DNA of 64,000 nucleotides from Candidatus Poribacteria bacterium (GTDB lineage Bacteria > Poribacteria > WGA-4E > JAJDTR01), in the NCBI GenBank assembly GCA_965208765.1, contig OZ242354.1:6015140-6079139 (forward strand), given 5' to 3'. Under the pieces are notes generated by a model, which was not told the origin of the DNA, made no database searches, and saw nothing but the letters and a program-made list of their open reading frames with translations. Positions 445 through 24,905 of the stretch are shown one piece after another; position 1 is the stretch's first letter, and each line of letters starts with the position of its first letter. The position numbers and the translations under genes are program-made.

Positions 445-1287
445 ATGAATCGTACAGTTCTATTCGCACTACACAGTTTCGTGGTCATCTTCTCTGTAGT
501 ACAATTTGCCCATGGAGCCATTGTCAAAGGCGATTTTGTTATGGCTTTTACTTTTGAAGGAGGGGATGAGAAGCTTGGCCAGTCAGCGGTAGGGATTCTC
601 AGAGATGTCTCCGGTAATGGCCATGACGGCGAGTTCAGGAAGAGTCCGAAATGGGTTGAAGGTGTAAGGGGCGCGGGGCTTGAGGTAGGCCCTGTTCGCA
701 AAGGTGTGAATGCTGGCTGGAATGCCGTTACTGTCCCGCATGCGAGCGAGATGGATCTTCAGAAGTTTGCAATTGCTGCGTGGGTTAAGGTGGATGAGCT
801 TGTAGGAGGATGCTGCAACATGATTGTAAGCAAGGAGAACTGGGCCGCGGACGCGACTCGCAATTATTCAATGTGGATGCGCGAGCAGGTTACCGTCGGA
901 TTTACGACGCGGAAGCCGTTCAATGATGTTCAGGCTCGCGGTATAGTCATAACCGATGGTGCATGGCATCACGCCGTTGGTACGTACGACGGTCAAACTC
1001 TTACCCAGTATGTGGATGGCGTGGCGTACGGCAAAGCCCCTTTTGCGGAACATGTACCGGCGTTTCATCTTTCGGAACGGCTACACATCGGTGCCATGGG
1101 GCCTTTCGGCAGCAGTCTAGGAATGTCAGGAATCGTTGATGAAGTTGCCATCTTCAACCGCGGTTTGACAGAAGATGAGGTGAACGACCTGATGACCAAC
1201 GGCCTTGAGAATCTTCTGGAATCTCAGGCTGTCGATCCGAGGTACAAAATGGCAACCACATGGGCGAAACTGAAATCAAACGAGTAG
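445..1287 (+). CDS. Secreted LamG-like jellyroll (ConA-like) protein with C-terminal TW[GA]xxK tail
   Basis: Signal peptide; DVSGNGHDG, WHHAVGTYDG, GIVDEVAIFNRGL motifs; ends VDPRYKMATTWAKLKSNE; GGAGG RBS. Confidence 0.85.
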   Translation: MNRTVLFALHSFVVIFSVVQFAHGAIVKGDFVMAFTFEGGDEKLGQSAVGILRDVSGNGHDGEFRKSPKWVEGVRGAGLEVGPVRKGVNAGWNAVTVPHASEMDLQKFAIAAWVKVDELVGGCCNMIVSKENWAADATRNYSMWMREQVTVGFTTRKPFNDVQARGIVITDGAWHHAVGTYDGQTLTQYVDGVAYGKAPFAEHVPAFHLSERLHIGAMGPFGSSLGMSGIVDEVAIFNRGLTEDEVNDLMTNGLENLLESQAVDPRYKMATTWAKLKSNE

Positions 1288-1595
1288 CAGCGTCATCGGG
1301 TTTAATTTTGGGAGTATCATTCAGTCTGTCACCGGGCGACTTCCCTACAATCGAGGGTGACGGAGGTTCGGCAAACTGCAAGCGATTCAGGGGATAATAG
1401 GAGGGGACGAAATCGTAAGATCTTCATGTGATTATTCTTAAACTTAAGCGCCGGTATCCTTAGGAGGTAAGCCAGATCATATCTGGCGTTTGGTGATATA
1501 TTAGCGATGCGCGATGACGGTTGGTTGCACTACAGAAACAAAGTCACAACCTCGCAGTTCATTGCACCAGCTTCATGACATAGGGAGGAATTGAC

Positions 1596-2633
1596 ATGAA
1601 AAGGCACGTCCGGATTGCACATGGATTAGTCGTCGTTTTGCTCTTGAGCATTGTTTCAATCGGTGACGCGCAGCCACAACAAGGGCTGTGGGAGGAGCGG
1701 AATGCGCCTATGCCTACCAAAAGACAAGGCTATGCCACCAGTGCCGTGGCTGGGAAGATTTATGCTATTGGCGGATACCTTTGGCATGATGACGAGCCAA
1801 AATTGGGGCGAGTACTTGGAACTGTAGAAGAATACGATCCTGCGACCAATCAATGGAGAGACAGAACGGGCATGCGAATAGCGCGCGCCTATCTTTCAAC
1901 CAGTGCTATAGATCGGACAACCAGTGCTATAGATGGGATTATCTATGCGATTGGGGGAGAAGTTCAAAGGTGGTGGTCGAGAAAACACGTGGAAGCGTAC
2001 GATCCTGCAGCAGACAACTGGGTAAAAAAGGCAGATATGATGACGGCGAGATCTTGGTTCTCCACGAGTGCAGCACATGGAAAGATCTATGCAATGGATC
2101 ACCAGTCGGTTGAGGCGTATGACCCGGTGGCAGATGTTTGGCAGAGGAGCGTTGCCGTGCCAACCAAAAGAAGTGGTTTTGGCATTAGCGTGGTGGGCGG
2201 TGTTATCTATGCCATGGGAGGATTGGATTGGGAACAGCACAAACACCTAGACGTCGTCGAAGCTTATGACCCTGCCACCGGAAGATGGACTACCAGAGCC
2301 GCGATGCCAGAAGCACGATACGGATTCACAGCTAGCGTTGTAAGGGATAAAATCTACGTGATGGGCGGTCGCGGAAGTGAAGGCCATCGACTTCTAACGA
2401 TCGATGTGTATGACCCCGACACGAATACCTGGGAGCCAAGAGGTGAGACGCCGGATCTATTCTCTCGCTACACCACGTGTGTTGTAGATGGAAAGATATA
2501 TATCTTCGCGGGGGTCTGGGACCTCGGACATAGTGTGTTAGTCTATACTCCGCCGGTTGCTGGAGGACCGCAAAGTGTCAATCCCGCAAGTAAGCTGGCT
2601 ACAACTTGGGGACAAGTGAAGGTGGGGCGGTAA
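1596..2633 (+). CDS. Secreted Kelch-repeat beta-propeller protein with C-terminal TWG tail
   Basis: Repeated GKIYAIGG...VEEYDPATNQW units; signal peptide; ends VNPASKLATTWGQVKVGR. Confidence 0.9.
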   Translation: MKRHVRIAHGLVVVLLLSIVSIGDAQPQQGLWEERNAPMPTKRQGYATSAVAGKIYAIGGYLWHDDEPKLGRVLGTVEEYDPATNQWRDRTGMRIARAYLSTSAIDRTTSAIDGIIYAIGGEVQRWWSRKHVEAYDPAADNWVKKADMMTARSWFSTSAAHGKIYAMDHQSVEAYDPVADVWQRSVAVPTKRSGFGISVVGGVIYAMGGLDWEQHKHLDVVEAYDPATGRWTTRAAMPEARYGFTASVVRDKIYVMGGRGSEGHRLLTIDVYDPDTNTWEPRGETPDLFSRYTTCVVDGKIYIFAGVWDLGHSVLVYTPPVAGGPQSVNPASKLATTWGQVKVGR

Positions 2634-2895
2634 ACGGCTAATGCGACTCATTAATGGACGCTGAGCAGCGCGCCTGTCAGAGAAAGCAGAAGTATTAACC
2701 AGTATGTCATTAGGGATTACGCATTGTTGTAGCGTACGTTACGCCGGGGTTCTGTAATGTGGCCGAAACTGGCGGTCGTCGTTATCTCATCGCTGATGCT
2801 GTTTGCGATTCGAGGCGACCAGAACATCGTGTCCAAGTCACGCACGCATGGGTGAAGATACGATTCCCAGAGTCATTATCCAGAAGGAAACAGCC

Positions 2896-3918
2896 ATGAA
2901 ACGACGAATATGTCTGCTAAAGTGTCTCGCTATCTTAGGGAGTGTGAGTATTTCTTCAACGGTTTGGGCGGCGCCCAAAGGAGATGTGTGGCTGAGCAAA
3001 CATACCCCGATGCCGAGCAAAAGGGTGGGGTTTTCCACGAGCGCCGTGAACGGGAAGATTTACGCTATTGGCGGTACGGATTGGGACGATGAGCCGCGAC
3101 ATGGAGTAGTCCTTCGTACTGTTGAAGAATATGACCCTTTAACTAACCAATGGAAGCGGCGTGAGGGCATGCGAGTCGCGAGAAGCTTTCTCGCCACAAC
3201 TGCCGCGAACGGGAAGATTTACGCTACCGGCGGCAGTGTTCAACTGTTTTGGGACAGGAGGCACGTGGAAGAATATAATCCTGTAACCGACACCTGGGAG
3301 ACGAAGGCGGATATGCTTGCGGCACGGTCTGATCACTTTGCAAACACCGTAGATGGGAAGATTTATGTGATAGGGCCAGCCGCCCATGGGTCGGTCGAAG
3401 CATACGATCCGGCCGCGGATAGATGGGAAGAAAAATCGGCGCTCCCAGAGCGTAGAAGTTTATTTGCCACAAGTGTTGTAGATGGGAAAATCTATGTAAT
3501 CGGAGGCGCGAGGTGGAATCCCACGAGAATCCTGGCGACAGTTGAAGTATATGATCCCGCCTCAGACACGTGGGAAACGAGAGCCGATATGCCAACGCCC
3601 AGATTTAATCTGTCTGCGAATGCTGTCAATGGGATTATTTACGCTATCGGCGGATCTACTGATGGAGGGCTTCGAGCATTACCAACGGTGGAAGCGTACA
3701 ACCCTGAAACGGACACCTGGGAAACGATGGCAGATATGCCAGAAGGGAGGTCTGGCTTCTCCTCCAGTGTAGTCAACGAGAAAATATATGTTTTTGCGAG
3801 TTTCAGGGAGTTCAGGCGAACCGTGCTAATCTATACGCCGCCATCTAGACCTCCTCGAAGCGTCCATCCGAAGGGCAAGATGGCAACAACGTGGGGGCAG
3901 ATAAAAGCACAGCGATAG
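2896..3918 (+). CDS. Secreted Kelch-repeat protein, paralog of 1596..2633
   Basis: Six Kelch repeats; ATG 2896 follows AAGGA; ends VHPKGKMATTWGQIKAQR. Confidence 0.9.
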   Translation: MKRRICLLKCLAILGSVSISSTVWAAPKGDVWLSKHTPMPSKRVGFSTSAVNGKIYAIGGTDWDDEPRHGVVLRTVEEYDPLTNQWKRREGMRVARSFLATTAANGKIYATGGSVQLFWDRRHVEEYNPVTDTWETKADMLAARSDHFANTVDGKIYVIGPAAHGSVEAYDPAADRWEEKSALPERRSLFATSVVDGKIYVIGGARWNPTRILATVEVYDPASDTWETRADMPTPRFNLSANAVNGIIYAIGGSTDGGLRALPTVEAYNPETDTWETMADMPEGRSGFSSSVVNEKIYVFASFREFRRTVLIYTPPSRPPRSVHPKGKMATTWGQIKAQR

Positions 3919-4131
3919 GCACGTTGTCCCACTCAGATAAACTCACGTAGGAAAGCATATAGCTTTCATGGATCACGTTGGGTTGCCATCTTTATTTGAA
4001 ATTTAGCCATGAGTTTCCAATGACGAGGTCAGTGTACCCGGTATTCTCCCGCCGGTTCCGCAGGAATCATAGAACAGAACGCCAAATCCTCACCAGACAA
4101 TACTCCCCACTGTCCTACTGAAATTAACCTC

Positions 4132-4160
4132 TTGACGAAGTTCAGAAAGTAAGATAATCT
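4132..4160 (+). promoter_or_regulatory. Putative sigma70 promoter
   Basis: TTGACG-17 nt-TAATCT, about 80 nt before ATG 4241. Confidence 0.4.
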
Positions 4161-4240
4161 AAGGAACTTCCGCAGATCTGGTTAAGTTCTGCTGAATCCC
4201 TCGCGCAAACTCCAAACTTAGGACCTAGTAAATCCTCTCA

Positions 4241-6184
4241 ATGGCTTTGAGTTCAAGCAAGCAGCCTCACTATCGGTCAAATGATGAATCTTTGAGGCAA
4301 ACACAGGTCACGTGGCGGGCGGTGCTTATCGCTCTCGTGTTGATACCGTTCAACTCATTTTGGATCGTTTACATGGAGACGGTCCATTATATCGCCCACT
4401 CCACCAATTTTAGCCTACTCTTCCATGCCATCTTCAATCTCACCCTTCTGCTTATGCTGAATGCCGTCCTGCGGCGAATTTCGCCGAGGTTGGTGCTCGG
4501 GCAGGGCGAGCTGGTCACCATCTATGTGATGCTCTGCATCGCTGGAACGCTCGCCGGACACAGCATGATGCAGATTCTCCCGCCTACCCTCGCCGCGCCC
4601 GTCGGTTTTGCCACTCCAGAGAACGACTGGAAAAACCTCTTCGGTCACCACTATCCCGACTGGCTTATCGTCACGGACACAAAGGCGCTGACCGGCTACA
4701 TGGCGACGGCTACGAAGCGACCCACCACGTTGTATATCGAAGCGCACATCCGACCGTGGATTGTGCCGGTGATCGCATGGACGGCGTTGATCTGTGTTTT
4801 CATGTTCGTCATGCTCTGCATAAACGCCATTCTCAGAAAACAGTGGACAGAACGCGAACGTCTCACCTATCCACTCACGCAGTTGCCGTATGAAATGACA
4901 AATCCGAAATCGGGGCTCCTTAAGAGTCGACTTCTTTGGATCAGCTTTGCGGTGGTTTGCATCATCAACATATTGAACGGTTTGCACACGTTCTATCCGG
5001 TTGTGCCATCGTTGCAGCTTCGCGCCTACAACTTGGGCAATTTCTTCACGACGAAACCGTGGGACGCCATCGGATATATGGCGTTGCTGGTGCGCCCATT
5101 TTTGCTCGGTCTCATCTTTCTCGTACCCCTCGACATCGCGTTCTCATGTTGGGTGTTCTTCTTTTTCTGGAAGGCGCAGTTGGTATTGGGCGAGGCGTGG
5201 GGATTTCAGAAGCGGCCCGAATTTCCCGAGCAGTCCGCCGGCGCTTATATTGCGCTCTGCGTCATCGCCGTCTGGACGGGCAAGCACCACTTTTCCAGAG
5301 TGATTCGCTCGGTCTGGGACCGTCGACTTGCCGGAGATAGCGAGAAGGAGGCGCTGCCGTACAATGTCGCCGTGTACGGCGTAATTGCGGGTTTCCTGTT
5401 TATCGTCATATTTTGTTGGCAGGCTGGCATGACATGGTGGGGCGCCGCCATATTCTTTGCGCTGCTGCTCATGACGAATATCGGAGTGACACGCATCCGC
5501 GCCGAGGTTGGTTCGCCCGTGCACGACCTGCACTTCGCAGGTCCGGAAATACTTATGCTGGACGCGTTTGGTACGCGGCGAGTGGGACCGCGGACATTGT
5601 CTATTATCTCGCTTTTCTGGTTTCTTACCCGGGCACACTACAGCGATCCGATGCCACACCAACTCGAAGGTTTCCGGATTGCTGATCGCTCGCGAATGAA
5701 TCAACGACGCGTTTTCGCCGTAATGCTCGTTGCCATTGTCGTTGGAACTGTAATCGCATTCTGGGCGCTGCTTGATGCCGGATACAAGCATGGCGCGAGT
5801 TGGGGCGGCGAGCCACTCGGCAGATTAAACCGCTGGTTAATCTATCCGATGCACCCCGATATGTACGGAATCGGCTATTTTAGTTTTGGATTACTGTTCG
5901 GTCTGTTTGTAATGTTTATGCGGGTGAGGTTCCTGTGGTGGCCGCTCCATCCTGCCGGTTACGCCGTATCCAGCACATACGGGATGCGGGATACGTGGTT
6001 CATGTTCTTTACGGCGTGGCTCATAAAATGGATTCTCCTGAAAGCGGGCGGTATGAAAGCGCACCGCGCCGCCATCCCGTTTTTCCTCGGCATGGTCTTG
6101 GCAGACTTCCTCGTCGGCGGCTGTTGGGCGTTGTTGGGTGTGCTGCTTAACGTGCGGACGTATGGATTCACCGCGTGGTGGTGA
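4241..6184 (+). CDS. Polytopic membrane protein, DUF6785/DUF6784-like (distantly OPT-transporter-like)
   Basis: Many hydrophobic segments; LRKQWTERERLTYPL, RIRAEVG and WWPLHPAGY motifs. Confidence 0.7.
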   Translation: MALSSSKQPHYRSNDESLRQTQVTWRAVLIALVLIPFNSFWIVYMETVHYIAHSTNFSLLFHAIFNLTLLLMLNAVLRRISPRLVLGQGELVTIYVMLCIAGTLAGHSMMQILPPTLAAPVGFATPENDWKNLFGHHYPDWLIVTDTKALTGYMATATKRPTTLYIEAHIRPWIVPVIAWTALICVFMFVMLCINAILRKQWTERERLTYPLTQLPYEMTNPKSGLLKSRLLWISFAVVCIINILNGLHTFYPVVPSLQLRAYNLGNFFTTKPWDAIGYMALLVRPFLLGLIFLVPLDIAFSCWVFFFFWKAQLVLGEAWGFQKRPEFPEQSAGAYIALCVIAVWTGKHHFSRVIRSVWDRRLAGDSEKEALPYNVAVYGVIAGFLFIVIFCWQAGMTWWGAAIFFALLLMTNIGVTRIRAEVGSPVHDLHFAGPEILMLDAFGTRRVGPRTLSIISLFWFLTRAHYSDPMPHQLEGFRIADRSRMNQRRVFAVMLVAIVVGTVIAFWALLDAGYKHGASWGGEPLGRLNRWLIYPMHPDMYGIGYFSFGLLFGLFVMFMRVRFLWWPLHPAGYAVSSTYGMRDTWFMFFTAWLIKWILLKAGGMKAHRAAIPFFLGMVLADFLVGGCWALLGVLLNVRTYGFTAWW

Positions 6185-7421: not shown

Positions 7422-7435
7422 ACATTCCTCTATAG

Positions 7436-8810: not shown

Positions 8811-8821
8811 TGGCATCTCCT

Positions 8822-11919: not shown

Positions 11920-14097
11920 ATGGAACAAGATATGTCTAACGATCAAAACTGGTCCGACGTGTTTTACGCGGAGGAACCTCACCCTACACTGAGTTACCGT
12001 TCGGGTATGGTTGTCTATGAAGAGTCACTCATCAAGGGAGGATTCGTCTCCAGAGCATGGAACGGTTCGGGCTATGTCAATTCTTGGGAGGATGTGAGGC
12101 TTGACCCGGCTCAGCATTCCGCGCCCCAGTCGTTCTGGCTTGAAATAGACGGGCAACTGCTTGCGTCGCATTGGGAATGGGTGGATTTCGAGAAGAATGA
12201 GGAAACTCGGCATGGATCCCACGGCGAGTGTACCTGTCTGCACGCAGTGGTGACGCTCCGGCACACGGTTCGCCCGGTTACGGTGAAAGTTCACATGTTA
12301 CTGGATGCGACGGCGGTTATGACTCGATGGCTCGAGATAACCAATACGGGAGACCAACACGCGGCGCTCTCGGCGGTTTACCCATGGAGCGGTGTGTTGA
12401 AGTTTTCGGGGCAATGGGGAAGTCACGGCGTACCGGTAGCGACAGATATGTCAGATCTCTATTCCATCGGTTACATGGCTAATTCCGCTTGGGGTGACGA
12501 GGGGAATTTCAAATGGCACGCGATTCCGACAGCGGGATATCGTGTGGATGGGCGGTATCGCCGAGACCGGCACCGCCACCCGATGTTTGTGCTGCGGAAC
12601 AACGCCACCGGCGAGCATTTTATATGCCAACTCGCCTGGTCGGGCGGCTTTTCGTTCGAGTTTGACCTTGATGGCCCTGTCGGGGACGTGGGACCTTATA
12701 GCCTCTTCTTCCGAGCTGGCCCCGACGCACCACCGCCTCATCGTGTCATTGGGCCGGGGGAGACGGTCACATCACCCGAGGTGCACTTGGGTATGGTCTT
12801 CGGGGACTTGGACGCCAGTATTCAAGCGATGCACGATCACCTTCGTCGGAGTGTCTTCATGCCGCAGCCTAGAGGGCGCGGCGGCTGGATCGAGTCCGGT
12901 ATCGGTCCCGAACTTGAAATCACGACCGATTACGTATTTCATCAGATTGAGAACGCAGCGGCTTGGGGCAGTGAGGTTTTCTTTATCGACGCAAGTTGGT
13001 ATGCCCCGCCGCATGGAAATTGGGCAACCACCGTTGGCGATTGGCAGGTGGACCGGCAGCGTTTCCCCGACGGAGTCGCACCGTTCCGTGATCGGTGCCA
13101 TGAACACGGTATGCTCTTCGGGCTTTGGATGGATGCGGAGCGCATCGGGGATGAAAGCCAGATTGCACAGGAACATCCGGAGTGGTTGGCAACAGCGTAC
13201 GATGGCGAAAAGAGACTTGGCCGCATGTTGGACTTGACCAATCCCGACGCGGCGAGATGGATGGAGGAGCAGATTTCTCGCGTAATTTCTGAAAACCAGT
13301 TGGAGTTTTTCCGACTGGATTACAACGTCGGGGGAATACGTCAAGGCGGACAAACCGTACGGAACGGTTATGTGGAGAGTCTCTACTGGCGCTACTACGA
13401 GGCGCTCTATAGTATGTACGATCGTTTGCGTGCGCGGTTCCCGGACGTGATATTGGAAAGCTGTGCCGGCGGAGGCGGCCGTACCGATATCGGCATGGTG
13501 CGGCGCTTCAGTCACTCTTGGGTTACGGATTGGCAGATTGCTCCGCGTTCGTTTTCCATTACCAACGGGATGACGATGGCGTTGCCACCGGAGCACGTAG
13601 ACCGTCTCGTAGCTGGTCAGAACGGGCACATTGTCGCAGAACTAGATTTCCAGTGGCGGTTGCTGCTTTTCGTCAGACCTACTCTGGCGTTCTTTCATCC
13701 TCTCGGCGCGAGTTGGAATCCCCATCAACTTGAACGCATTCGGCATTTCATAAACCTTTATAAGCATTTCGTTCGACCATTTATGAACACCGGACGCATT
13801 TATCACCACACGCCGGCATTCGAAGGCACCGAACCTACAGGTTGGGGAGTGTTGGAGCTTGCGTCAAGAGATCGAAGGCGTGCCGTTGCGGGCGTTTTTC
13901 AGTTGTCGGCGCCGCAAGAAAGCGAATACTGTTTGCGTTTTCGCGGCTTGGACGTTTCCAAACGCTATCTCGTGACGTGGGACAATAGCGGTCAGACCTG
14001 CGAAATAGACGGCTTCACTCTCATGAAACAGGGGTTGTCAATTCGGCTTGAAGGAGCGCTAACTTCAGAGTTGCTACGTTGCAATGCAATCGATTGA
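11920..14097 (+). CDS. Alpha-galactosidase, GH36 family
   Basis: FFIDASWY, GDW...RFPDG, FGLWMDAE, FRLDYN, ESCAGGGGR motifs; GH36 C-terminal domain. Confidence 0.88.
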   Translation: MEQDMSNDQNWSDVFYAEEPHPTLSYRSGMVVYEESLIKGGFVSRAWNGSGYVNSWEDVRLDPAQHSAPQSFWLEIDGQLLASHWEWVDFEKNEETRHGSHGECTCLHAVVTLRHTVRPVTVKVHMLLDATAVMTRWLEITNTGDQHAALSAVYPWSGVLKFSGQWGSHGVPVATDMSDLYSIGYMANSAWGDEGNFKWHAIPTAGYRVDGRYRRDRHRHPMFVLRNNATGEHFICQLAWSGGFSFEFDLDGPVGDVGPYSLFFRAGPDAPPPHRVIGPGETVTSPEVHLGMVFGDLDASIQAMHDHLRRSVFMPQPRGRGGWIESGIGPELEITTDYVFHQIENAAAWGSEVFFIDASWYAPPHGNWATTVGDWQVDRQRFPDGVAPFRDRCHEHGMLFGLWMDAERIGDESQIAQEHPEWLATAYDGEKRLGRMLDLTNPDAARWMEEQISRVISENQLEFFRLDYNVGGIRQGGQTVRNGYVESLYWRYYEALYSMYDRLRARFPDVILESCAGGGGRTDIGMVRRFSHSWVTDWQIAPRSFSITNGMTMALPPEHVDRLVAGQNGHIVAELDFQWRLLLFVRPTLAFFHPLGASWNPHQLERIRHFINLYKHFVRPFMNTGRIYHHTPAFEGTEPTGWGVLELASRDRRRAVAGVFQLSAPQESEYCLRFRGLDVSKRYLVTWDNSGQTCEIDGFTLMKQGLSIRLEGALTSELLRCNAID

Positions 14098-14116
14098 ACT
14101 ACTAGGAGAATTCCTC

Positions 14117-16030
14117 ATGCAAGTATTGAAATCTCACGCCAGAATCGTGCTAGTTATTTTCTTCTGTTCCGCAACCGTGCTCGCGATGCTAACCATGTCT
14201 GCCGCCGCGGCGGAACCGAAGCAGGTCCCCGTACCAGAGGATGCGCACAATCCGTCTTGGTTGGAACCCCGTAGGCAGGCCCAGTTGGAAACTGTCGATC
14301 AGTTCAACGTCTTTTACGATTTTCAATTCACCGACCAGATCATGGAAAGCGGCATTCAGTTCATTCACCAGATAGTGGATGACGCTGGAAAGGATTATAA
14401 GCTAGTTCATTATGACCACGGCAATGGAATCGTGATCGCGGATGTCGATCTGGACGAACGGTATGATATCTACTTCGTCAACCAACTGGGAAGCAACGAG
14501 TTGTGGAGAAACCTTGGCGGCGGAAGGTTTGAAAATATAACGGAATCGGCGGGTGTGGCGGTAGCGGATCGTATCAGCGTTACCGCGTCCTTTGCCGATA
14601 TTGACAACGATGGCGATCCGGACCTGTTTGTCACGACTGTCGGCATGGGCAATATCATGTTTGAAAATGACGGCAGCGGTGCGTTTAAGGACATAACAGA
14701 ATTGGCTGGCTTGGGCTATGTCGGACATTCGTCCGGTGCCATTTTCTTCGACTACAACCTCGACGGTATGCTAGACCTCTTTTTGACCAATGTTGGAGTC
14801 TACACCATTCCGCTCAAGGGGCGGGGCGGCTATTGGGTCGGGTTAAGGGATGCCTTCACCGGTCACCTGAAGCCGGATCGCACCGAAAACAGCATTCTTT
14901 ACAAGAATATGGGAGGCAACCGCTTTGTCGATGTCACGGAAGAGACGGGTTTGGTTGACGGAAGTTGGAGCGGAGACGCCTCGCCGATAGATGTCAACGG
15001 CGACAATTTCCCGGACCTGTACGTTCTGAACATGCAGGGGCATGATGAATATTACGAGAACGTAAATGGCGAGTCCTTTGTAAAAAAGAGCCGTGAAATC
15101 TTCCCGAAAACCCCGTGGGGAGCGATGGGGATTAAGGTATTCGACTATAACAACGACGGTTTGCTGGACATCATTATTTCGGACATGCACTCGGATATGT
15201 CCGAGGATATTGGCCCGGAGCGCGAGAAGCTAAAGTCACGGATGCAGTGGCCCGAGTCCTCGCTACGCTCCGGGGGTAACAGCATTTTCGGCAACGCGTT
15301 CTTCAGAAACGAGGGTGATGGCAATTATGTCGAAGTCTCGGACGAGATAGGCACCGAGAACTATTGGCCGTGGGGGCTAAGCGTCGGCGACTTGAATGCG
15401 GACGGATACGACGATGTGTTCCTTGCTTCAAGTATGAACTATCCGTTCCGATACGGCGTGAACTCCCTGCTACTGAATAATCGCGGCGACGAGTTTCTGG
15501 ACAGTGAGTTCATCGTGGGAGTCGAACCTCGCCGAGATGGAAGAACGACGAAGCCTTGGTTTGAACTTGAATGTTCTGGTGCGGATGCCGGACACAAGGA
15601 TTGCAAGGGACAAAGCGGACGGATTACAGTGCTTGGGGCGTTGGGGACCCGATCTTCAATCATCTTCGATCTGGATGATGACGGGGATTTGGACATCGTC
15701 ACAAACGAATTTAACTCCGAGCCGATGGTTCTAACGAGCAATCTCGCCGAGAAGAAAGCGGTTAATTATGTGAACGTGAAACTCATCGGCACAGACTCAA
15801 ACAGAGATGGACTCGGCGCGCAGGTTACCGTTACCGCGGGTTCAAAGTCCTACCTCAAAGTCCACGACGGGCAGTCCGGCTACCTTTCGCAGAGCCTGTA
15901 TCCGCTTTACTTCGGATTAGACGAGGCGGACAAGGTAGACCGGATCGATGTTCTCTGGCCGTCGGGAAAACGCCAGGTTGTTTCAGGGCCCCTTGATGCC
16001 AATGAGTTGATTGAAATACGAGAAGAATGA
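14117..16030 (+). CDS. CRTAC1-family FG-GAP repeat / ASPIC-UnbV protein
   Basis: Repeated D-x-D-N-D-G-x-x-D loops; C-terminal GYLSQSLYPLYFGL...WPSG; signal peptide; AGGAG RBS. Confidence 0.9.
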   Translation: MQVLKSHARIVLVIFFCSATVLAMLTMSAAAAEPKQVPVPEDAHNPSWLEPRRQAQLETVDQFNVFYDFQFTDQIMESGIQFIHQIVDDAGKDYKLVHYDHGNGIVIADVDLDERYDIYFVNQLGSNELWRNLGGGRFENITESAGVAVADRISVTASFADIDNDGDPDLFVTTVGMGNIMFENDGSGAFKDITELAGLGYVGHSSGAIFFDYNLDGMLDLFLTNVGVYTIPLKGRGGYWVGLRDAFTGHLKPDRTENSILYKNMGGNRFVDVTEETGLVDGSWSGDASPIDVNGDNFPDLYVLNMQGHDEYYENVNGESFVKKSREIFPKTPWGAMGIKVFDYNNDGLLDIIISDMHSDMSEDIGPEREKLKSRMQWPESSLRSGGNSIFGNAFFRNEGDGNYVEVSDEIGTENYWPWGLSVGDLNADGYDDVFLASSMNYPFRYGVNSLLLNNRGDEFLDSEFIVGVEPRRDGRTTKPWFELECSGADAGHKDCKGQSGRITVLGALGTRSSIIFDLDDDGDLDIVTNEFNSEPMVLTSNLAEKKAVNYVNVKLIGTDSNRDGLGAQVTVTAGSKSYLKVHDGQSGYLSQSLYPLYFGLDEADKVDRIDVLWPSGKRQVVSGPLDANELIEIREE

Positions 16031-16566: not shown

Positions 16567-16818
16567 AGCTTGGACTGCCAACTATAGGTTGTCGGGCGCG
16601 GCGGCAAGTTGTTTTTTTGATGCCGCCGTTGAGTGATAATCGTTTAGTATTTGACGGACGGTTTTCTTCTAACGGCTGAAATGCCGTAGGGAGAAGCTAA
16701 AAGCCGGGTATTTGGAACCCGGAACGATATTTGCGGGCAGGCACAATTCCGCAAATCATAAATTGGTGGGACGCGCTTTGCCGCATCCGCACCTCAAATC
16801 AATATGAAGGAGATTAAC

Positions 16819-17649
16819 ATGAAAATGGGTTTTGTTAAATCAAGCCTATTATGCCTAGGCGTGCTCGTGGCATGCTTAGTTTTTACGAACGTCAGTGACG
16901 CGGTCAAGATGGACAACGCGCTTGCAATTTGGACGTTTGACGAAGGTCAAGGCGAGACGGTCGCGGACATGTCCGGCAGCGGCAACGATGCCAAATTCGC
17001 AGCCGGTAACCCCGAATGGGTCGCCGGCAAGTTCGGTGGCGCGTTGCGATTTGCCGGTGCCGACGATGACGGCTGGGTAGCTACAGATGCCCCGGTTGTT
17101 GTGGATACCGTTGATTTCAGCATGGGTTGCTACGTGAATCCCGGCGATGCTCAGAAAACCTGGACGAACATCCTCTCCAGTCACCAAGAACCGCCCCGGC
17201 GCGGCATGTCCTTTGAGCAGATTGAAAATAATGTCAATCTCTTTGGAATCGCCATCGGCGACGGTCCCAACTGGGCCGGGAACGGAAACGTCCAACTCGA
17301 AACCGGCGTTTGGAACCATATGGCTTTTGTCCGTGTCGGCGACAAGGGCTACTGGTACTACAATGGCGCACCAGATGAATTCGTCGGTCCGGGTGGCGAG
17401 GCTCAACTAGCTTCTGGCGACCCCGTGGTCGCCGCTACCGAGCCCTTCCGCATTGGCAACTGGATACTTGGCGGACGCGAATTCAACGGCGCGGTTGACG
17501 ACGCTTTCCTATTTAACAGAGCGCTCAGCGCCGAGGAGATTGCCGATATCGCTTCACGCGGTATTGCTGCCGCGCTTGCAGGCGGAACTTCAGTAGATCC
17601 AAGAGACAAAGCATCGGTTACTTGGGGAGATATTAAAGCCCTGAAGTAA
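16819..17649 (+). CDS. LamG-like jellyroll protein (array copy 1)
   Basis: AAGGAG RBS before ATG 16819 (16804 is an alternative start); signal peptide; ends VDPRDKASVTWGDIKALK. Confidence 0.88.
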   Translation: MKMGFVKSSLLCLGVLVACLVFTNVSDAVKMDNALAIWTFDEGQGETVADMSGSGNDAKFAAGNPEWVAGKFGGALRFAGADDDGWVATDAPVVVDTVDFSMGCYVNPGDAQKTWTNILSSHQEPPRRGMSFEQIENNVNLFGIAIGDGPNWAGNGNVQLETGVWNHMAFVRVGDKGYWYYNGAPDEFVGPGGEAQLASGDPVVAATEPFRIGNWILGGREFNGAVDDAFLFNRALSAEEIADIASRGIAAALAGGTSVDPRDKASVTWGDIKALK

Positions 17650-17823: not shown

Positions 17824-17996
17824 ATGAGTTGCGCCTTAGGCGTTTGGTTGCTTGATGAAGGCAAGGGCAGCAATGTTAAGAACATCTCCGGAAGCAGCAA
17901 TTACGGGGATATCAGGCGCTATGCCAAGTGGGTGGGGTTGCAAATAACGACAAAACGGCTTCGACACGGGGAAAGATTAAGGCTTGGGACCGGTAA
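17824..17996 (+). pseudogene. Internally deleted LamG remnant
   Basis: N-terminal piece ALGVWLLDEGKGSNVKNISGSSNYG..KWV joined, in another frame, to the tail DKTASTRGKIKAWDR* (17946-17996). Confidence 0.7.
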
Positions 17997-18177
17997 GCCG
18001 GCGCGCTTCAGAAAACCTGTTATAAGGTTCTTTCGGTCGTTCGTACACGGCTGGGGCGAACTTGGGCCTGACCGCTAAACTCACGAAAGCAGTCGTATCA
18101 TGACGCTACGATCTTTATCCATTCCTGAAGGCACGCGTCGCAGGTGCCATCACATCTCGGCAAGGAGGATTCAGAAT

Positions 18178-18996
18178 ATGACCAAATTTACAAACTACAG
18201 GCTATTCCCCTTCGTTCTCCTCCTAAGTTTCTGCGCTTTTTTGTGGACGAGTTATGCTACGGCGCAGTTGGATCTTGACGGCGCTCTGGCAATTTGGCTG
18301 CTTGACGAAGGAAGAGGGGATGATGTCGAGGATTTCTCAGGCAACGACAACGGCGGGGCATTTGAACAGGGCCAACCCAAATGGGTGGATGGTAAGTTTG
18401 GAAAAGCGCTGGAGTTTGACCAGCAGAGCTGGGTGGCGATGAACAACCCTGTCGTCACCGTGCCAGACATGGTTGATTTCAGCATCGGATGCTGGGCGAA
18501 TCCCGGGGACAGCCAAAAGACGTGGACGAATATACTGTCCAGCCACCAAGAACCGCCGCGCCGAGGTCTGTCGTTTGAAATGTTTGAAGACCAAACCAAC
18601 TTTTTTGGGATTGCATTCGGTGACGGGGAAAATTGGGTGGGCGGAGGATGGGCGCAATTAAAAGCCGGTGTATGGAATCATATGGCATTCGTTCGCACGG
18701 GAAATATGGGAACTTGGTACCTCGACGGAGAAGTATCGATGGAAATCAGATTGCTAACGGATAATCCGGTTTTTCCCGCCACATCAAACTTCCGAATCGG
18801 AAACTTCGTGCTCGGCGGCCGTGAATACAACGGAGCCGTTGACGACGCTTTCCTTTTTGAGAGAGCCTTGAGCGCCGATGAAATCAAGGACATCGTTGAC
18901 AGCGGTATTGCCGCCGCACTTGCCGACACTGGAACAGTTGTAGATCCGAGAGACAGAGCATCCGTAACTTGGGGTCAGATTAAAGTCCGGAAGTAA
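18178..18996 (+). CDS. LamG-like jellyroll protein (copy 2)
   Basis: AAGGAGG RBS; signal peptide; ends VDPRDRASVTWGQIKVRK. Confidence 0.88.
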   Translation: MTKFTNYRLFPFVLLLSFCAFLWTSYATAQLDLDGALAIWLLDEGRGDDVEDFSGNDNGGAFEQGQPKWVDGKFGKALEFDQQSWVAMNNPVVTVPDMVDFSIGCWANPGDSQKTWTNILSSHQEPPRRGLSFEMFEDQTNFFGIAFGDGENWVGGGWAQLKAGVWNHMAFVRTGNMGTWYLDGEVSMEIRLLTDNPVFPATSNFRIGNFVLGGREYNGAVDDAFLFERALSADEIKDIVDSGIAAALADTGTVVDPRDRASVTWGQIKVRK

Positions 18997-19006
18997 CAGA
19001 GGCAGA

Positions 19007-19332
19007 TTACCGTCGGCGAGTGGAACCATTATCGCTTTCGTGCGCAGAGGTATCCGGGGAACGCAGTATCTAAACGGGAAAGAGACGACTGAAGTTAGGG
19101 TGGCTTCGGATAAGCGGTTGTACCTGCCGCATCAAACTTCCGACTCGGCAACTGGGTGCTGGGAGGTAGAGAGTTTAGCGGCATAGTTGACGAATCGTTT
19201 ATTTTTAGCAGGCCGCTAGAAGCAGAGGAAATCGAATCCATCTACACGAGAGGCTTCGAACATGCCCAAGCCGTCAGTTCACAGGGTAAAGCCGCTACAA
19301 CTTGGGGAAAGATAAAATCTTGGCATCAGTAA
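19007..19332 (+). pseudogene. C-terminal LamG gene fragment
   Basis: Degenerate WNH..FVR..YLNG, then SNFRLGNWVLGGREFSGIVDESFIFSRPLEAEEIESIYTRGFEHAQAVSSQGKAATTWGKIKSWHQ*; no start codon or N-terminal half. Confidence 0.8.
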
Positions 19333-19590: not shown

Positions 19591-20397
19591 ATGATGAAAA
19601 CTACAAAGTTCAGACTGTTCCACTTTGTTCTCTTCCTTTGTTGCTGCGCTCTCATGTGGACAACTTTCGCAGCCGCACAGTTAAACCTTGACGGCGCTCT
19701 GGGCATTTGGCTGCTAGACGAGGGAAGCGGTGACAAGGTTGAGGATTTCTCTGACAACGACAACGGCGGAGCGTTTGCACGGGGTAAACCGAAGTGGGTG
19801 GATGGGAAGTTCGGAAAAGCGCTGCAATTCGAGCAGGACAGTTGGGTGGCGATGAACAACCCTGTCGTGACCGTAAAAGACATGGTGGAATTCAGTATGG
19901 GATGCTGGGCGAATCCGGAGAACAGCCAAAAGACTTGGACAAACATCCTCTCCAGCCATCAGGAACCGCCGCGCCGGGGTATTTCGTTTGAGATGATCGA
20001 AAACAATCTCAACCTGTTTGGGATTGCTATTGGCGATGGACCGAACTGGGCCGGAAATGGACGCGTGCAGTTAAAAACCCGCGCATGGAATCATTTGGTG
20101 TTTGTTCGCACGGGAAATAAAGGCAAGTGGTATTTGAACGGTAAAAATCAAGGCAGGTACGATTTGGCTTCGGACAGGGCGGTCGTCCCCGCTACGTCAA
20201 ACTTCCGAATCGGCAACTGGGTGCTCAACAATAGAGAGTTCAACGGCAAGGTTGACGAGTCGTTTGTTTTCAGCAGGGCACTGGAGGACGAGGAAGTCGA
20301 AGCCATCTACAAGAGAGGTTTCGAAAATGCCCAAGCTGTCACTTCGAAAGGCAAATTCACTACGACTTGGGGAAAGATTAAGTCTTGGCATCAATGA
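19591..20397 (+). CDS. LamG-like jellyroll protein (copy 3)
   Basis: Paralog of neighbours; ends KFTTTWGKIKSWHQ. Confidence 0.88.
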   Translation: MMKTTKFRLFHFVLFLCCCALMWTTFAAAQLNLDGALGIWLLDEGSGDKVEDFSDNDNGGAFARGKPKWVDGKFGKALQFEQDSWVAMNNPVVTVKDMVEFSMGCWANPENSQKTWTNILSSHQEPPRRGISFEMIENNLNLFGIAIGDGPNWAGNGRVQLKTRAWNHLVFVRTGNKGKWYLNGKNQGRYDLASDRAVVPATSNFRIGNWVLNNREFNGKVDESFVFSRALEDEEVEAIYKRGFENAQAVTSKGKFTTTWGKIKSWHQ

Positions 20398-20797: not shown

Positions 20798-21601
20798 ATG
20801 AAAATCTCCAATCTCAGTATCTTCCGCCTCTTTGTCCTCCTCAGTTGTTGCACTCTCATGTGGGAGCGTACCGCGCCTGCACAGCTAAACTTCGACGGTG
20901 CCCTGGCAATTTGGTTGCTTGACGAAGGTAGAGGGGTCGATGTCGAGGATTTCTCCGGCAACGACAACGGCGGGGCATTTGCCCAGGGCAAACCCGAATG
21001 GGTGGATGGGAAGTTTGGAAAAGCGCTGGAGTTCGACCAGCAGAGTTGGGTAACGATGAACAACCCGGTGGTGACTGTGAAAGGCATGATTGACTTCAGC
21101 ATCGGATGCTGGGCGAATCCCGAGAACCAGCAAAATACGTGGACAAACATTCTCTCCAGCCACCAGGAACCGCCTCGCCGAGGATTGTCGTTTGAAATGT
21201 TCGAAAACCAAACCAACTTTTTTGGGATTGCATTCGGGGATGGGGAAAATTGGGCAGGCGGAGGATGGGCGCAACTAAAAGCCGGTGTGTGGAATCATAT
21301 GGTATTCGTTCGCACGGGAAATATGGGAATTTGGTACGTGGACGGAGAAAAGTTCATGGATGTCCGGTTGCCATCGGATAAGCCGGTTCAGGCTGCCACT
21401 TCAAACTTCCGCATCGGCAATTGGGTTCTCGGTACGAGGGAGTATAACGGCATGGTTGACGAAGCGTTTATTTTTAGCAGGGCACTGGAGGTCGAGGAGG
21501 TTCAATCCATCTACAAGAGAGGCTTCGAAAATGCCCAAGCTGTCACCTCGAAAGGCAAATCCACTACGACGTGGGGAAAGATTAAGTCGTGGCACCAGTA
21601 G
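20798..21601 (+). CDS. LamG-like jellyroll protein (copy 4)
   Basis: Paralog; ends KSTTTWGKIKSWHQ. Confidence 0.88.
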   Translation: MKISNLSIFRLFVLLSCCTLMWERTAPAQLNFDGALAIWLLDEGRGVDVEDFSGNDNGGAFAQGKPEWVDGKFGKALEFDQQSWVTMNNPVVTVKGMIDFSIGCWANPENQQNTWTNILSSHQEPPRRGLSFEMFENQTNFFGIAFGDGENWAGGGWAQLKAGVWNHMVFVRTGNMGIWYVDGEKFMDVRLPSDKPVQAATSNFRIGNWVLGTREYNGMVDEAFIFSRALEVEEVQSIYKRGFENAQAVTSKGKSTTTWGKIKSWHQ

Positions 21602-21835
21602 TCCGCAGCGGTTAGAAGAGCTGTTTTGGAGTTTTCAGTGTGGGGCGATGAAACGCCCGTCTTTAACATTTCATCAATAATAAAGGAGGTGTCAATCGGG
21701 TTGATTCATTCGTTACGTCTTCTCCGTTGAATTCCTAGTTGGTCCCCGCTAAACCTCTCGGAAGAAGCGAGTCTCGACGTTGCGAACGTTCCGAGATTGC
21801 CTACCATATGTCTGAATCTTCCCGGCGAAAAATCC

Positions 21836-22672
21836 ATGAACACGATTATTCTTAGAAGCATGTTTTGTGTCATCAGCCTGCTGTTGGCAAGTCTGACTTT
21901 GACAAGCCTTAGTTTCGCACAACCCTTCTTCAAAGATGCTGTGGCGATTTGGCTCTTTGACGAAGAGAAGGGGAAGGAAGTCAAAGACTTTGCGCGCAAC
22001 GATCATGATGGCGTGTTTGAAGGGAGGCCCGAACGCGTGCCTGGGAAATTCGGATTGGCGTTGGAGTTTGGCGGTGCGGATGAGAATCAATGGGTTGAAA
22101 TAGAACGCCCGGTGGTAGTGGACAGCGTCGATCTCACCATAGGCTGCTGGCTGAATCCGGGGACCCCTCAGCATCACCATGCGAATGTGCTTGCTGGCCG
22201 GCCGGAGCAAGATTCAAACCAAGGTGTTGTACTGGCGCAGTATGAAAACGCTGTCAATAGTTATCGGATTGTCATTGGCGGCGTATTCAACTGGCAGGGG
22301 CTGGGCAATCCTAGAAACTCGGTTAGGATAGATAACGACGTGTGGACCCATGTGGTCTTCGTGCGAAAAGGCAGAGGAGGAACATGGTACAAGAACGGCG
22401 AACCGGATCGCCCGAAGCGCGGCAATTTTCATATCGATCTGGGATCAGAAAAGCCTGCAAATCCCTCTGATGTGAAGTTCCGCATTGGTGTTTCAGTCTT
22501 TAATCCAGACCGGCGATATCGGGGCATTCTTGACGAAGCGTTTATCTTTGAAAGGGCGATGAGTCAGGAGGAAGTTCAACTTATCATGAACGAGGGACTT
22601 GAGGAGGCACAGAACGTCGAATTCAAGCACAAAGCAGCAACCGTCTGGGGTCGGATAAAGTCGCCTAATTAG
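21836..22672 (+). CDS. LamG-like jellyroll protein (copy 5, second subfamily)
   Basis: Signal peptide; IGGVFNWQGLG; ends KAATVWGRIKSPN. Confidence 0.88.
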   Translation: MNTIILRSMFCVISLLLASLTLTSLSFAQPFFKDAVAIWLFDEEKGKEVKDFARNDHDGVFEGRPERVPGKFGLALEFGGADENQWVEIERPVVVDSVDLTIGCWLNPGTPQHHHANVLAGRPEQDSNQGVVLAQYENAVNSYRIVIGGVFNWQGLGNPRNSVRIDNDVWTHVVFVRKGRGGTWYKNGEPDRPKRGNFHIDLGSEKPANPSDVKFRIGVSVFNPDRRYRGILDEAFIFERAMSQEEVQLIMNEGLEEAQNVEFKHKAATVWGRIKSPN

Positions 22673-22877
22673 TCGAATGTTCTCGTTCCCAAGCCGTCTC
22701 TGGAAGATACCCAATCCTCTGAAGTCGATCTTCACAATTGATCGGCTTCAGCGAATTTCTACGAGCCATGTAATTCAGCTAGTTTAATAGACTTCCAATT
22801 GGTGAGCGCCCAACCGTCTGGAAGAAGATTCTTGATAGTGTGCACGTATTTCTTAAATTATCTCGGAAGGTGATTTT

Positions 22878-23714
22878 ATGCATAGGATTATCGAAAGATT
22901 CACCGCGATTGCCCTCAGTGTATGTCTCGTAAGCTTAGGGTTCGCGGGTGTCGCCCATTCACAGAACCTCATGAAAAACGCGGTTGCAGTTTGGCTTTTT
23001 GACGAAGGCAGAGGCAAGGATGTTAACGATTTTGCCAGAAATAGCCACGATGGTAAGTTCGGCGGTAAACCCGAGTGGGTTCCTGGCAAATTTGGCACAG
23101 CCTTGGAATTTGAAGGTGAGGACAACAACCATTGGGTGGACATTGAACGTCCGGTAGTCGTAGACTCGGTTGATTTGAGCATCGGTTGCTGGCTGAAACC
23201 CGGCTCGCCGCAACTGCGGTTTCAGAATGTGCTCGGCGGCCGGCCGGCTGAAGACTCGGCTGACGGGATTTCTTTGCTGCAGTATGAAAACACCGTGAAC
23301 AATTATAGAGTTGCCATTGGCGGGGTGTTCAATTGGCAAGGGCTGGGAAGTCCCAGACATGTTGCCAGGCTGCTTACCGATGTATGGACGCATCTGGTTT
23401 TCGTGCGTGAGGGTCGAGGAGGCACCTGGTACGTGAACGGCGAACCGGACCGACGGAAGGTCGGAGAATATTACATCGATATAAAAAGCGAGAAACCCGC
23501 GAATCCGACTGATATTAACTTTCGCATTGGAGGCGCGCCATTCAACGAATCCCGAAAATATCGCGGTATCCTGGACGAGGCGTTCATTTTTGAGCGAGCG
23601 CTCAGTCAAGAGGAAGTGCAACGCATCATGAACGAAGGGTTTCAGGAAGCGCAACATGTTGACACCAAGGGCAAAGCCGCAACCGTCTGGGGAAAGATAA
23701 AGTCGCCGCGTTAG
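22878..23714 (+). CDS. LamG-like jellyroll protein (copy 6)
   Basis: Paralog of copy 5; ends KAATVWGKIKSPR. Confidence 0.88.
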   Translation: MHRIIERFTAIALSVCLVSLGFAGVAHSQNLMKNAVAVWLFDEGRGKDVNDFARNSHDGKFGGKPEWVPGKFGTALEFEGEDNNHWVDIERPVVVDSVDLSIGCWLKPGSPQLRFQNVLGGRPAEDSADGISLLQYENTVNNYRVAIGGVFNWQGLGSPRHVARLLTDVWTHLVFVREGRGGTWYVNGEPDRRKVGEYYIDIKSEKPANPTDINFRIGGAPFNESRKYRGILDEAFIFERALSQEEVQRIMNEGFQEAQHVDTKGKAATVWGKIKSPR

Positions 23715-24005
23715 CCCGATGTATCCGCCCCTAATGCTGCTGTTAAAAATTCTCAAAAAAATGGCGGCGACATTTGTTATTGACTGTTAACAGGATGTCG
23801 GGTGTGTTTATGTGTTAGGTCTGTTCCGGTTTATTATCAGTTGATATGCTTTGCCACACGAAAGAAGCGCATCTTGACATTCTAACCTTTCCATTCGAGC
23901 GCCGGCCGACTTCTGAAACTTCCCCTTGATGATGTCCGTCGAATCGGAATATCCATCCCATTCCTTGGTCGTCATTCGACCGATATGATCGCTTGATTAC
24001 CGGGT

Positions 24006-24905
24006 ATGCCATGCAAGAGTGCTGATGTGGAATTTGGTATAAGCAAAAGGCGTCGCAAAAAGGGGCTGTTTCTTCAATCACGCTCTAAAGTCACGCCATT
24101 CGCCATCGGTTTTCTGTCCGTATGTTTAATATGGGCAAACGCCGCCCATTCACAGCCGTTTCTGAGAGATGTCGTGGCAATATGGCTATTTGACGAAGGC
24201 GAGGGGAAGAACGTCAACGATTTCACCCGTAACCGCCACGATGGCGAGTTTAATGGACAACCCGAATGGGTGCCCGGTAAATTCGGAACAGCTTTGAAGT
24301 TCGCGGGTGAGGACGCTAATCAGTGGGTTGACATTGAGCGTCCGGTCGTCGTAGACACGGTCGATTTTAGCATCGGCTGCTGGATGTTACCGGGCGCGCC
24401 GCAGCACTGGCACCAGAATCCGCTGTCCGGTCGGCCCGCTGTAGCGTCGGATGAAGGGTTTGCCATTGCACAGTTCGAAAACGCGGTCAACAGCTATCGA
24501 ATGGTTATCGGAGGAGTGTTCAATTGGGCGGGGCTGGGTAATCCGAGAAACTCCGCCAGGTTGAAGCAGGATGAATGGGCACATCTAGTTTTCGTACGTG
24601 AGGGCAAGGGCGGAATATGGTACATAAACGGCGAGCCCGATCGCCCGAAGCGCGGCAATTTTTACATCAATATTGGAAACGATAATCCCGTAAATCCTAC
24701 CGAGAAGAATTTCCGCATCGGAGCCGCGTCATTTGATGACTTGCGGCGTTACCGCGGTATTCTTGACGAGGCGTTTGTATTTGAACGAGCGCTGAATCAA
24801 GAGGATGTTCAACGAATTATGAACGAAGGATTTCAAGAAGCCCAGAACGTAGACCCCAAGGGTAAAACGGCAACTGTCTGGGGCCGAGTAAAGTCGTCGC
24901 ATTAG
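24006..24905 (+). CDS. LamG-like jellyroll protein (copy 7; start uncertain)
   Basis: Paralog of copies 5 and 6; ends KTATVWGRVKSSH. Confidence 0.82.
   Translation: MPCKSADVEFGISKRRRKKGLFLQSRSKVTPFAIGFLSVCLIWANAAHSQPFLRDVVAIWLFDEGEGKNVNDFTRNRHDGEFNGQPEWVPGKFGTALKFAGEDANQWVDIERPVVVDTVDFSIGCWMLPGAPQHWHQNPLSGRPAVASDEGFAIAQFENAVNSYRMVIGGVFNWAGLGNPRNSARLKQDEWAHLVFVREGKGGIWYINGEPDRPKRGNFYINIGNDNPVNPTEKNFRIGAASFDDLRRYRGILDEAFVFERALNQEDVQRIMNEGFQEAQNVDPKGKTATVWGRVKSSH

Follow-up and report, generated by a model that had tools for sequence, protein, structure and literature searches.

A 64,000-nucleotide stretch of a Candidatus Poribacteria genome (contig OZ242354.1; hereafter the window) carries a series of genes whose exported products, of unrelated folds, end in one short conserved peptide, here called the tail. 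The tail is most likely a tag, one for which no published description was found, and it occurs on about 290 genes of the source genome and in every genome of the phylum tested, so that it defines a large exported 'binding proteome' of these dominant, uncultured sponge symbionts and offers a simple sequence handle on it. Two families of type IX secretion (T9SS) cargo hold the same motif in the disordered junction that precedes their C-terminal domain (CTD), and loss of the CTD would leave a tail-like C-terminus. Because of this, we tentatively favour the reading that the tail is a sorting or attachment tag tied to a divergent T9SS-like envelope apparatus; the link to type-IX-like sorting is proposed here.

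The tail and its occurrence

In a six-frame translation of the window, the pattern V-x-[PSTF]-x-x-[KR]-x-[AST]-[TV]-[TV]-W-[GA]-x-[IVL]-K was found 11 times, always on the + strand and always with a stop codon 3-4 residues further on, as the initial annotation had it, against no match at all in 100 triplet-shuffled windows. Ten of the 11 matches end intact open reading frames (ORFs), eight with a Laminin_G_3 (LamG; PF13385) body and two with a Kelch body (PF01344). The bodies score well above the gathering thresholds of their families, at 57-78 bits against 27.6 for 8/8 LamG proteins (E 1e-21 to 2e-15) and at 171 and 203 bits against 20.1 for 2/2 Kelch proteins, and NCBIfam gives only weak TafC-like matches on the LamG bodies. 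A signal-peptide-like N-terminus, in some cases from an internal start, is present on all ten. The eight LamG and two Kelch proteins first described, signal peptides included, are thus borne out; of the two gene remnants listed with them one is clear and accounts for the eleventh match, and the other (probably 17880-17993) is degenerate.

It is evident from the whole genome, a single contig of 6.49 Mb with a GC content of 0.508, that the feature is far larger than the window, within which it had been placed at the right coordinates. A six-frame count over the genome gives 235 instances of the loose core [TVS]W[GA]x[IVLM]K, 186 of them 0-7 residues before a stop. A hidden Markov model (HMM) of 20 columns, built from 177 seed tails and iterated once, gives the consensus [AS]-V-x-P-x-G-K-L-A-T-T-W-G-x-[IL]-K, with V in 166/177 seeds and with W and the final K invariant, both of these being fixed by the seed pattern. 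The model places the motif within 17 aa of the C-end in 291 ORFs, and this position is near-exclusive: among 35,733 six-frame ORFs, matches of at least 12 bits number 290 near the C-end and 3 elsewhere. The tail ORFs encode single-domain proteins with a median length of 325 aa (5-95%: 186-374) and are spread over 90 genomic places, comprising 42 singletons and arrays of up to 37 genes. One member of a 12-gene family (G000:C1:3117290-3118189) has its tail (19.9 bits) 25 residues before the stop instead of 10 or fewer, which may reflect read-through or a lost stop codon.

Genome-wide, the final K is followed by 0-17 residues (modes 3, 7 and 5, mostly 2-7) rich in R (17.7%), S (11.3%) and K (8.7%), and the eight commonest last residues of 288 tails are R (109), K (45), P (34), Q (20), D (18), H (11), Y (11) and E (10). 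An outer-membrane-protein beta-signal was considered and rejected, since it needs an aromatic last residue and Y is the sole aromatic among these eight. A C-terminal, exposed and flexible peptide with such a basic end could also be where a periplasmic C-terminal protease acts, in maturation or turnover control and not in localisation. This is very unlikely, given that such proteases usually recognise their tags at the extreme end of the protein, and here the conserved part is set back from it by the variable residues. Why some 290 binding proteins, in all genomes of the phylum, should keep a degradation tag under such strong selection would moreover be hard to explain, as would a fixed position before the CTD.

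The bodies that carry the tail fall into 30 unrelated BLASTP clusters, mostly beta-rich, for which Pfam families were assigned from representatives of 20 clusters and from the window genes. The largest family is that of PD40/TolB-like propellers, with 129 members, followed by LamG proteins in clusters of 67, 16, 6 and 1, BNR/sortilin-like propellers in clusters of 21 and 2, and six Kelch proteins. The representative of a 12-member cluster gives a weak, sub-threshold match to 3-keto-disaccharide hydrolase; others are DUF3108-like or have weak cohesin and YncE-like matches, and eleven cluster representatives gave no Pfam match. By a crude hydrophobicity test of the N-terminus, 258/276 (93%) of the tail ORFs of at least 190 aa begin with a hydrophobic 10-mer, against 1085/2870 background long ORFs. 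The idea of a selective tag on exported proteins of unrelated folds, as initially put forward, agrees well with these counts.

The tail is lineage-wide, in keeping with its first description as lineage-specific. Its 20-column profile matches 41/41 relatives from 4 families and 10 genera, and 121/121 genomes of the phylum from 8 families and 19 genera, other classes included, with from 15 to at least 74 matches per Poribacteria genome; a small genome of 3.8 Mb (G010) has only 15-24. A scan of 185,579 species genomes with the back-translated pattern K-L-x-T-T-W-G-x-I-K returned at least 120 loci, and 126/128 of the matches listed lie within 10 aa of a stop. Among 80 listed loci, 71 carry the label Poribacteria, 7 'uncultured bacterium', 1 Pseudomonadota and 1 Deltaproteobacteria. 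In the last two genomes there are no more than 4 and 1 matches, whereas three of the unlabelled ones have from 61 to over 150, and these two are probably cases of misbinned contigs. A word-index protein search with residues 301-345 of a Kelch tail gave 11 candidates, all close Kelch orthologs, and was thus of no use for following the tail itself; among the homologs of the window LamG protein that was modelled (see below), every name that bears an organism is Candidatus Poribacteria, the others being 'hypothetical protein'. Overall, the tail is likely restricted to the phylum, with the proviso that the matches listed do not show its absence elsewhere.

No model in Pfam or NCBIfam covers the tail on the window proteins or the cluster representatives. 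Likewise, no description of it was found in the literature on Poribacteria secretion and sorting or on TTWG C-termini, a negative that does not extend to tables S8 and S9 (TIGR04183 genes) of PMC3909097.

The tail motif ahead of type IX C-terminal domains

The source genome has 136 matches to the CTD model TIGR04183, none of them within the window, and 0/10 tail proteins of the window match it at E values up to 10; PD40 bodies contain two fragments that stay below the threshold (12.4 bits, E about 0.85). With a local profile, a full T9SS-type CTD of about 87 aa was recognised on 133 ORFs, almost always 2 residues from the end, and these ORFs have a median length of 808 aa. The tail motif stands in the junction upstream of the CTD in 33 of the 133. 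Nineteen of these belong to an FG-GAP propeller family of 525-565 aa, in which the full 16-residue motif directly precedes the CTD at a fixed distance, with W replaced by L, F or I and the first K by L; 13 residues separate the end of the motif from the end of the examined upstream stretch, which reaches 5 residues into the CTD match. The other 14 are WD40 proteins of about 760 aa; here the core TTWGxIK comes after the final WD repeat, at about 32 residues from the CTD that follows. In the 4.02 million residues of other ORFs, the FG-GAP and WD40 patterns occur 0 and 3 times, respectively. The FG-GAP+CTD family is a large one, with 4321 database relatives at E <=1e-10 among 8000 candidates scored, some of them named 'T9SS type A sorting domain-containing protein [Candidatus Poribacteria bacterium]'. 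The initial statement that the tail does not resemble a T9SS CTD therefore holds for length and HMM, and fails in so far as it implied that the two are independent, since the motif lies upstream of these 33 CTDs. One CTD protein of 1006 aa (G000:C1:2301987-2305007) has a LamG domain 60% identical to that of a tail-only LamG protein, so that the same body is used with either C-terminal module.

Structure prediction gives the same picture of the motif in both contexts. The AlphaFold2 (AF2) model of the LamG protein at 16804-17649 (67 homologs) has a mean confidence (pLDDT) of 89 and a jelly-roll core above 90, and its last 26 residues fall to pLDDT 66/58/47, with a weak helix, no strands and no packing. 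In the model of an FG-GAP+CTD protein (71 sequences), the propeller and the CTD are confident and residues 455-488, which comprise most of the tail-like motif and the first CTD residues, are below 50. According to these models, the conserved linear peptide lies in a disordered stretch, whether it ends the protein or precedes a CTD. A folded T9SS beta-sandwich (40-100 residues) was tried as a description of the tail and rejected on its length of about 20 residues, its low confidence and its lack of strands.

These models also bear on a suggestion raised at the outset, that the tail is an integral structural strand, and on the related one that it marks a DNA-level element such as a recombination site or terminator. 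The composition of the motif is indeed beta-prone (V, T, T, W, I) and many of its genes stand in tandem arrays. However, the tail is left unpacked at low confidence in both contexts and hence is not an integral strand of the fold, and it is shared by some 30 unrelated body clusters that include both propellers and jelly rolls. Third codon positions vary freely at the conserved residues: all synonymous codons are used, as for V (GTT 83, GTG 80, GTC 80, GTA 28), the conserved K is AAA in 154 and AAG in 131 cases, and the conserved G uses four codons. Selection thus acts on the peptide and not on the DNA, and both suggestions are largely refuted and scarcely credible.

Among known systems, the T9SS type A CTD (TIGR04183/PF18962 Por_Secre_tail; FlgD_ig-like) is similar in that it, too, marks the C-terminus of Sec-exported proteins with many unrelated folds and has hundreds of copies in a genome, and the genome that carries the tail also holds the CTDs, a subset of them preceded by the motif, along with PorV-, PorU- and SprA-like genes. 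It differs in being a folded beta-sandwich of about 87 aa here, against about 20 residues, unstructured in AF2, for the tail. The tail is no truncated form of the CTD, since it lies N-terminal to it where both occur. Strong reduction of T9SS signals is possible, as the short CTDs of Prevotella intermedia indicate, which, in the part of PMC11969387 that deals with them, have 43-55 aa in three strands and keep motifs B, D and E and the fold; the tail has neither these motifs nor the fold. In Bacteroidota, PorU cuts at the junction of mature domain and CTD and attaches the surface anchor there, and a short conserved cleavage-site motif marks this site, as outlined in portions of PMC11969387 and PMC4560394. 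The poribacterial motif occupies the same disordered junction as the cleavage-site motif in the pre-CTD coil of P. intermedia. It differs in that the latter, as far as that portion of PMC11969387 goes, comprises few residues (PT/GI) and is never found alone at a C-terminus, whereas the poribacterial block has 16 residues.

LPXTG/sortase, PEP-CTERM/exosortase and GlyGly-CTERM/rhombosortase signals, the last of which keeps secreted proteins at the surface, likewise combine a short near-C-terminal motif and a basic end on exported proteins, to the extent that they are treated in the relevant part of bioRxiv 10.64898/2026.02.05.703148. By that account they need a transmembrane helix between motif and basic end, and the tail has only the 0-17 (mode 3) polar or basic, R/K/S-rich residues after its final K. 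It therefore has no transmembrane segment and is no transmembrane-type signal; the initial annotation had rightly set it apart from LPXTG and PEP-CTERM.

Dockerin-cohesin pairs offer another comparison, as dockerins too are portable C-terminal modules that bring diverse proteins onto a common partner. By the same logic, the tail could be a non-covalent docking or assembly peptide that plugs modules onto a scaffold or onto each other as a surface coat, with no processing. Peptide-docking motifs usually take just this form, a conserved linear motif in a disordered segment; the bodies are binding modules of lectin-like or propeller type, CTD proteins of the source genome carry dockerin-like repeats, and one tail protein has a weak cohesin match (E 7.9e-5, below the cut-off). 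Yet no scaffold with repeated receptor modules was identified, and the variable basic extension after the final K has no obvious docking role, so that we consider this distinctly unlikely. The tail itself is about one third of the length of a dockerin and lacks EF-hand calcium-binding repeats, and the Pfam dockerin model (PF00404) matches none of the 30 tail proteins to which it was applied, namely 10 window proteins and 20 cluster representatives. As for the CTD proteins, many of the 133 have a dockerin-like EF-hand pair and a helical connector before the CTD.

Candidate machinery and the role of the tail

The initial annotation left the machinery behind the tail open, and a T9SS-like apparatus is now the leading candidate, as PorV/PorQ-family, PorU-like and SprA-like genes are all encoded in the source genome. 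Three PorV-like proteins pass the cut-off of the PorV/PorQ model NF033709 (189-221 bits against 90), and all of them end in a typical barrel terminus. One of these is present in 41/41 genomes of the phylum at 44-93% identity, as a single copy in 35 and with two matches in six. Two PorU-like ORFs of about 2080-2090 aa, each with its own CTD, score 281 and 266 bits. At G000:C1:5115526-5122949, a gene for a PorV/PorQ-like barrel comes immediately after a PorU-like one (2092 aa, with CTD), in what we take to be the porU-porV arrangement of Porphyromonas. A SprA/Sov-like ORF of 2147 aa (G000:C1:5473758-5480198) has collinear partial matches to TIGR04189 of 67.5, 47.4, 35.9, 20.6 and 14.9 bits, and counterparts, of about 2120-2340 aa where complete, are found in 41/41 Poribacteria genomes and 0/14 controls.

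On the strength of these gene matches, Poribacteria are predicted to have T9SS-like outer-membrane parts. A 2014 study described eukaryote-like binding proteins with possible Por-type sorting domains in Poribacteria and, in the passages of PMC3909097 on this point, stated that Por secretion structural genes were not found; the SprA-like, PorU-like and PorV-family genes qualify that statement. Three other PorV-like genes lie 125-900 bp from CTD genes, two of these being giants of 3649 and 4498 aa. A GldK model matched mainly with its C-terminal half and on more than 10 separate short ORFs, in what is probably a generic domain match.

In the mechanism that we propose, the tail would be a portable linear peptide, linked flexibly to Sec-exported, single-domain, beta-rich binding proteins (LamG, Kelch, PD40, BNR and DUF1080-like). 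After export to the periplasm, a shared envelope component would recognise it, most likely a part of the type-IX-like apparatus, be it the SprA-like channel, the PorV/PorQ-family barrels or the PorU-like sortases. The tail would stay on the mature protein and place or hold it at the cell surface, and the FG-GAP proteins, once the CTD is removed, would end in the manner of the tail-only proteins. We infer the binding or processing of the tail, the agent of it and the surface location of the tail proteins. Should a T9SS-like apparatus prove to read the tag, sorting of the type-IX style would reach a further phylum and a novel, minimal kind of signal, and the tail could serve as a portable peptide for surface display.

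Several observations weigh against this mechanism. The SprA-like and PorU-like scores are below the curated cut-offs, of 200 and 420 (equivalog) bits, respectively, and the GldM and GldN models found no match, in a test that is weak because the controls were silent too. No tail genes stand near T9SS-like genes, the nearest being 5 kb to 165 kb away, whereas CTD genes abut them. With only 33 of 133 CTD proteins carrying the motif, and the others examined having a dockerin-like and helical module before the CTD, the motif is not a general part of CTD recognition or cleavage. A search for CTD remnants downstream of the 291 tail ORFs found none (best E 0.65), and the tail-only genes are thus not recently truncated CTD genes. 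The known T9SS relies on the CTD for the passage of cargo across the outer membrane; tail-only proteins have no CTD, which leaves their outer-membrane route unexplained, and they might remain in the periplasm. When a PorV/PorQ-family ortholog (residues 26-361, alignment of 28 rows) was co-folded with a tail alignment of 35 residues, no answer came out, the score of 0.00 being evidence neither way.

Given these points, one could return to the initial proposal that the tail is the address label of an unrelated export or anchoring system yet to be found, its occurrence before CTDs being incidental module shuffling. The lack of genomic linkage between tail genes and T9SS-like genes, the absence of a CTD or CTD remnant from tail-only proteins and the small fraction of CTD proteins with the motif all speak for it, and the small size of tail proteins beside the large CTD proteins (medians of 325 and 808 aa) suggests two cargo classes. 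We nonetheless regard it as rather unlikely, for the 33 motifs at fixed distances before the CTD, next to 0 and 3 elsewhere, are hard to call incidental, and no alternative machinery candidate emerged, the ATP-binding cassette (ABC) operon of the window looking cell-wall related.

A bolder form of the T9SS-tied reading, in which the tail alone suffices for a CTD-independent type-IX-like branch, with a PorV/PorQ-family shuttle or a PorU-like sortase reading the peptide and displaying or attaching some 290 lectin and propeller modules, we hold to be unlikely. If true, such a branch would equip Poribacteria with a programmable binding coat with which to live inside sponges, and no earlier surface-sorting signal of a diderm bacterium would have been, like the tail, short and neither transmembrane nor a domain.

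Genes of the window

The first three tailed genes of the window are part of a 7-gene array that starts 5.3 kb before it. They encode a LamG protein of 280 aa with a signal peptide (445..1287, +; tail at 1231-1284, VDPRYKMATTWAKLK plus 3 aa; PF13385 E 1.1e-21), a Kelch beta-propeller protein of 345 aa, also with a signal peptide (1596..2633, +; tail at 2577-2630, VNPASKLATTWGQVK plus 3 aa; Kelch_1 E 2.5e-51), and a second Kelch beta-propeller protein, whose likely start is an internal ATG about 30 codons in (2803..3918, +; tail at 3862-3915, VHPKGKMATTWGQIK plus 3 aa; Kelch_1 E 2.4e-61).

The remaining ones belong to an 8-gene array. The first of them encodes the modelled LamG protein of 281 aa (276 aa in its database form; 16804..17649, +; tail at 17593-17646; PF13385 E 4e-16), behind which lies the degenerate tail-like remnant with R in place of W (17880..17993, +), whose 1.5 bits against the tail HMM are not significant alone. 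The next LamG gene probably starts about 26 codons into its ORF (18100..18996, +; tail at 18940-18993, VDPRDRASVTWGQIK plus 3 aa; PF13385 E 9.1e-19). The clear remnant, a 72-codon open frame (19114..19332, +; tail at 19273-19329, 35.5 bits against the tail HMM), keeps nothing of a LamG paralog but the last helix and the tail, and its sequence (19114-19329) is near to the 3' ends of the two genes that come next, for LamG proteins of 268 aa (19591..20397, +; tail at 20338-20394; PF13385 E 1.4e-18) and 267 aa (20798..21601, +; tail at 21542-21598; E 9.5e-19). Last come a LamG gene likely to start at codon 14 (21797..22672, +; tail at 22616-22669; E 1.7e-15), one for a protein of 278 aa (22878..23714, +; tail at 23658-23711; E 9.9e-18) and a 299-aa ORF with a probably internal start (24006..24905, +; tail at 24849-24902; E 2.4e-15), and these last five genes all match the motif. 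An FG-GAP/UnbV_ASPIC protein with a signal-peptide-like start (14084..16030, +; FG-GAP_3 E 2.9e-40, UnbV_ASPIC E 3.2e-16) serves as a negative example, its C-terminus being free of the motif as first reported.

Metatranscriptome contigs from three sponge runs of one study overlap the LamG array in places, with a likeness of 92-99%, and one of the stretches covered is the end of 16804-17649 that codes for the tail. This is a weak hint that several of the window LamG genes are expressed, as contigs from RNA libraries are no proof and the uncovered parts are uninformative. One contig (run X3, depth 70) joins position 18815 to 19168 and omits the 352 bases between them. It may be that the LamG gene at 18100 continues, in a related strain, directly into the 3' end that is left here as the remnant at 19114-19329. 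The joint hints at a swapping of 3' ends or tails between paralogs; at this likeness, other organisms can also yield such joints.

The ABC operon at 34-46 kb had been named as a speculative candidate for the machinery of the tail. It encodes four proteins, namely a giant of 2480 aa (34324-41766) with M28 peptidase, LysM, MacB_PCD and FtsX domains, two proteins that have no Pfam match and an ABC ATPase, and a class A penicillin-binding protein (PBP) gene lies immediately upstream. The LamG array lies 9 kb upstream of the operon, 61/61 Poribacteria genomes have the giant protein, at 47-92% identity, and MacB-type pumps can move periplasmic proteins. Against a role in handling the tail, the LysM and M28 domains and the adjoining class A PBP point to cell-wall work of the FtsEX type, the tail genes are scattered far beyond this locus, and a second paralog of the giant is encoded at 2.278 Mb (G000:C1:2278073-2285674). 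Universal presence does not discriminate either, as such a phyletic pattern cannot tell the operon from other core genes. The operon thus has no specific link to the tail, and that it should be its machinery is highly improbable; the giant protein is probably a cell-wall-directed FtsEX/MacB-type machine of unusual size.

Elsewhere in the window, a 647-aa membrane protein with DUF6785 (E 1e-154) and DUF6784 (4241-6184) is encoded between the Kelch genes and a set of sugar-metabolism genes for an enolase-superfamily protein, a xylose-isomerase-like protein, an FGGY kinase and a GH36 alpha-galactosidase. The region at 52-60 kb is probably an acquired island, with a GC content of 0.45-0.46 against 0.50-0.54 elsewhere, and a 1139-aa Eco57I-like type IIG restriction-modification enzyme is encoded at 51708-55127. 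Finally, the gene at 27412-28263 belongs to the PhyH (phytanoyl-CoA dioxygenase) family, which is expanded in Poribacteria according to the part of PMC3909097 that concerns it, a study with supplementary tables on phyH.

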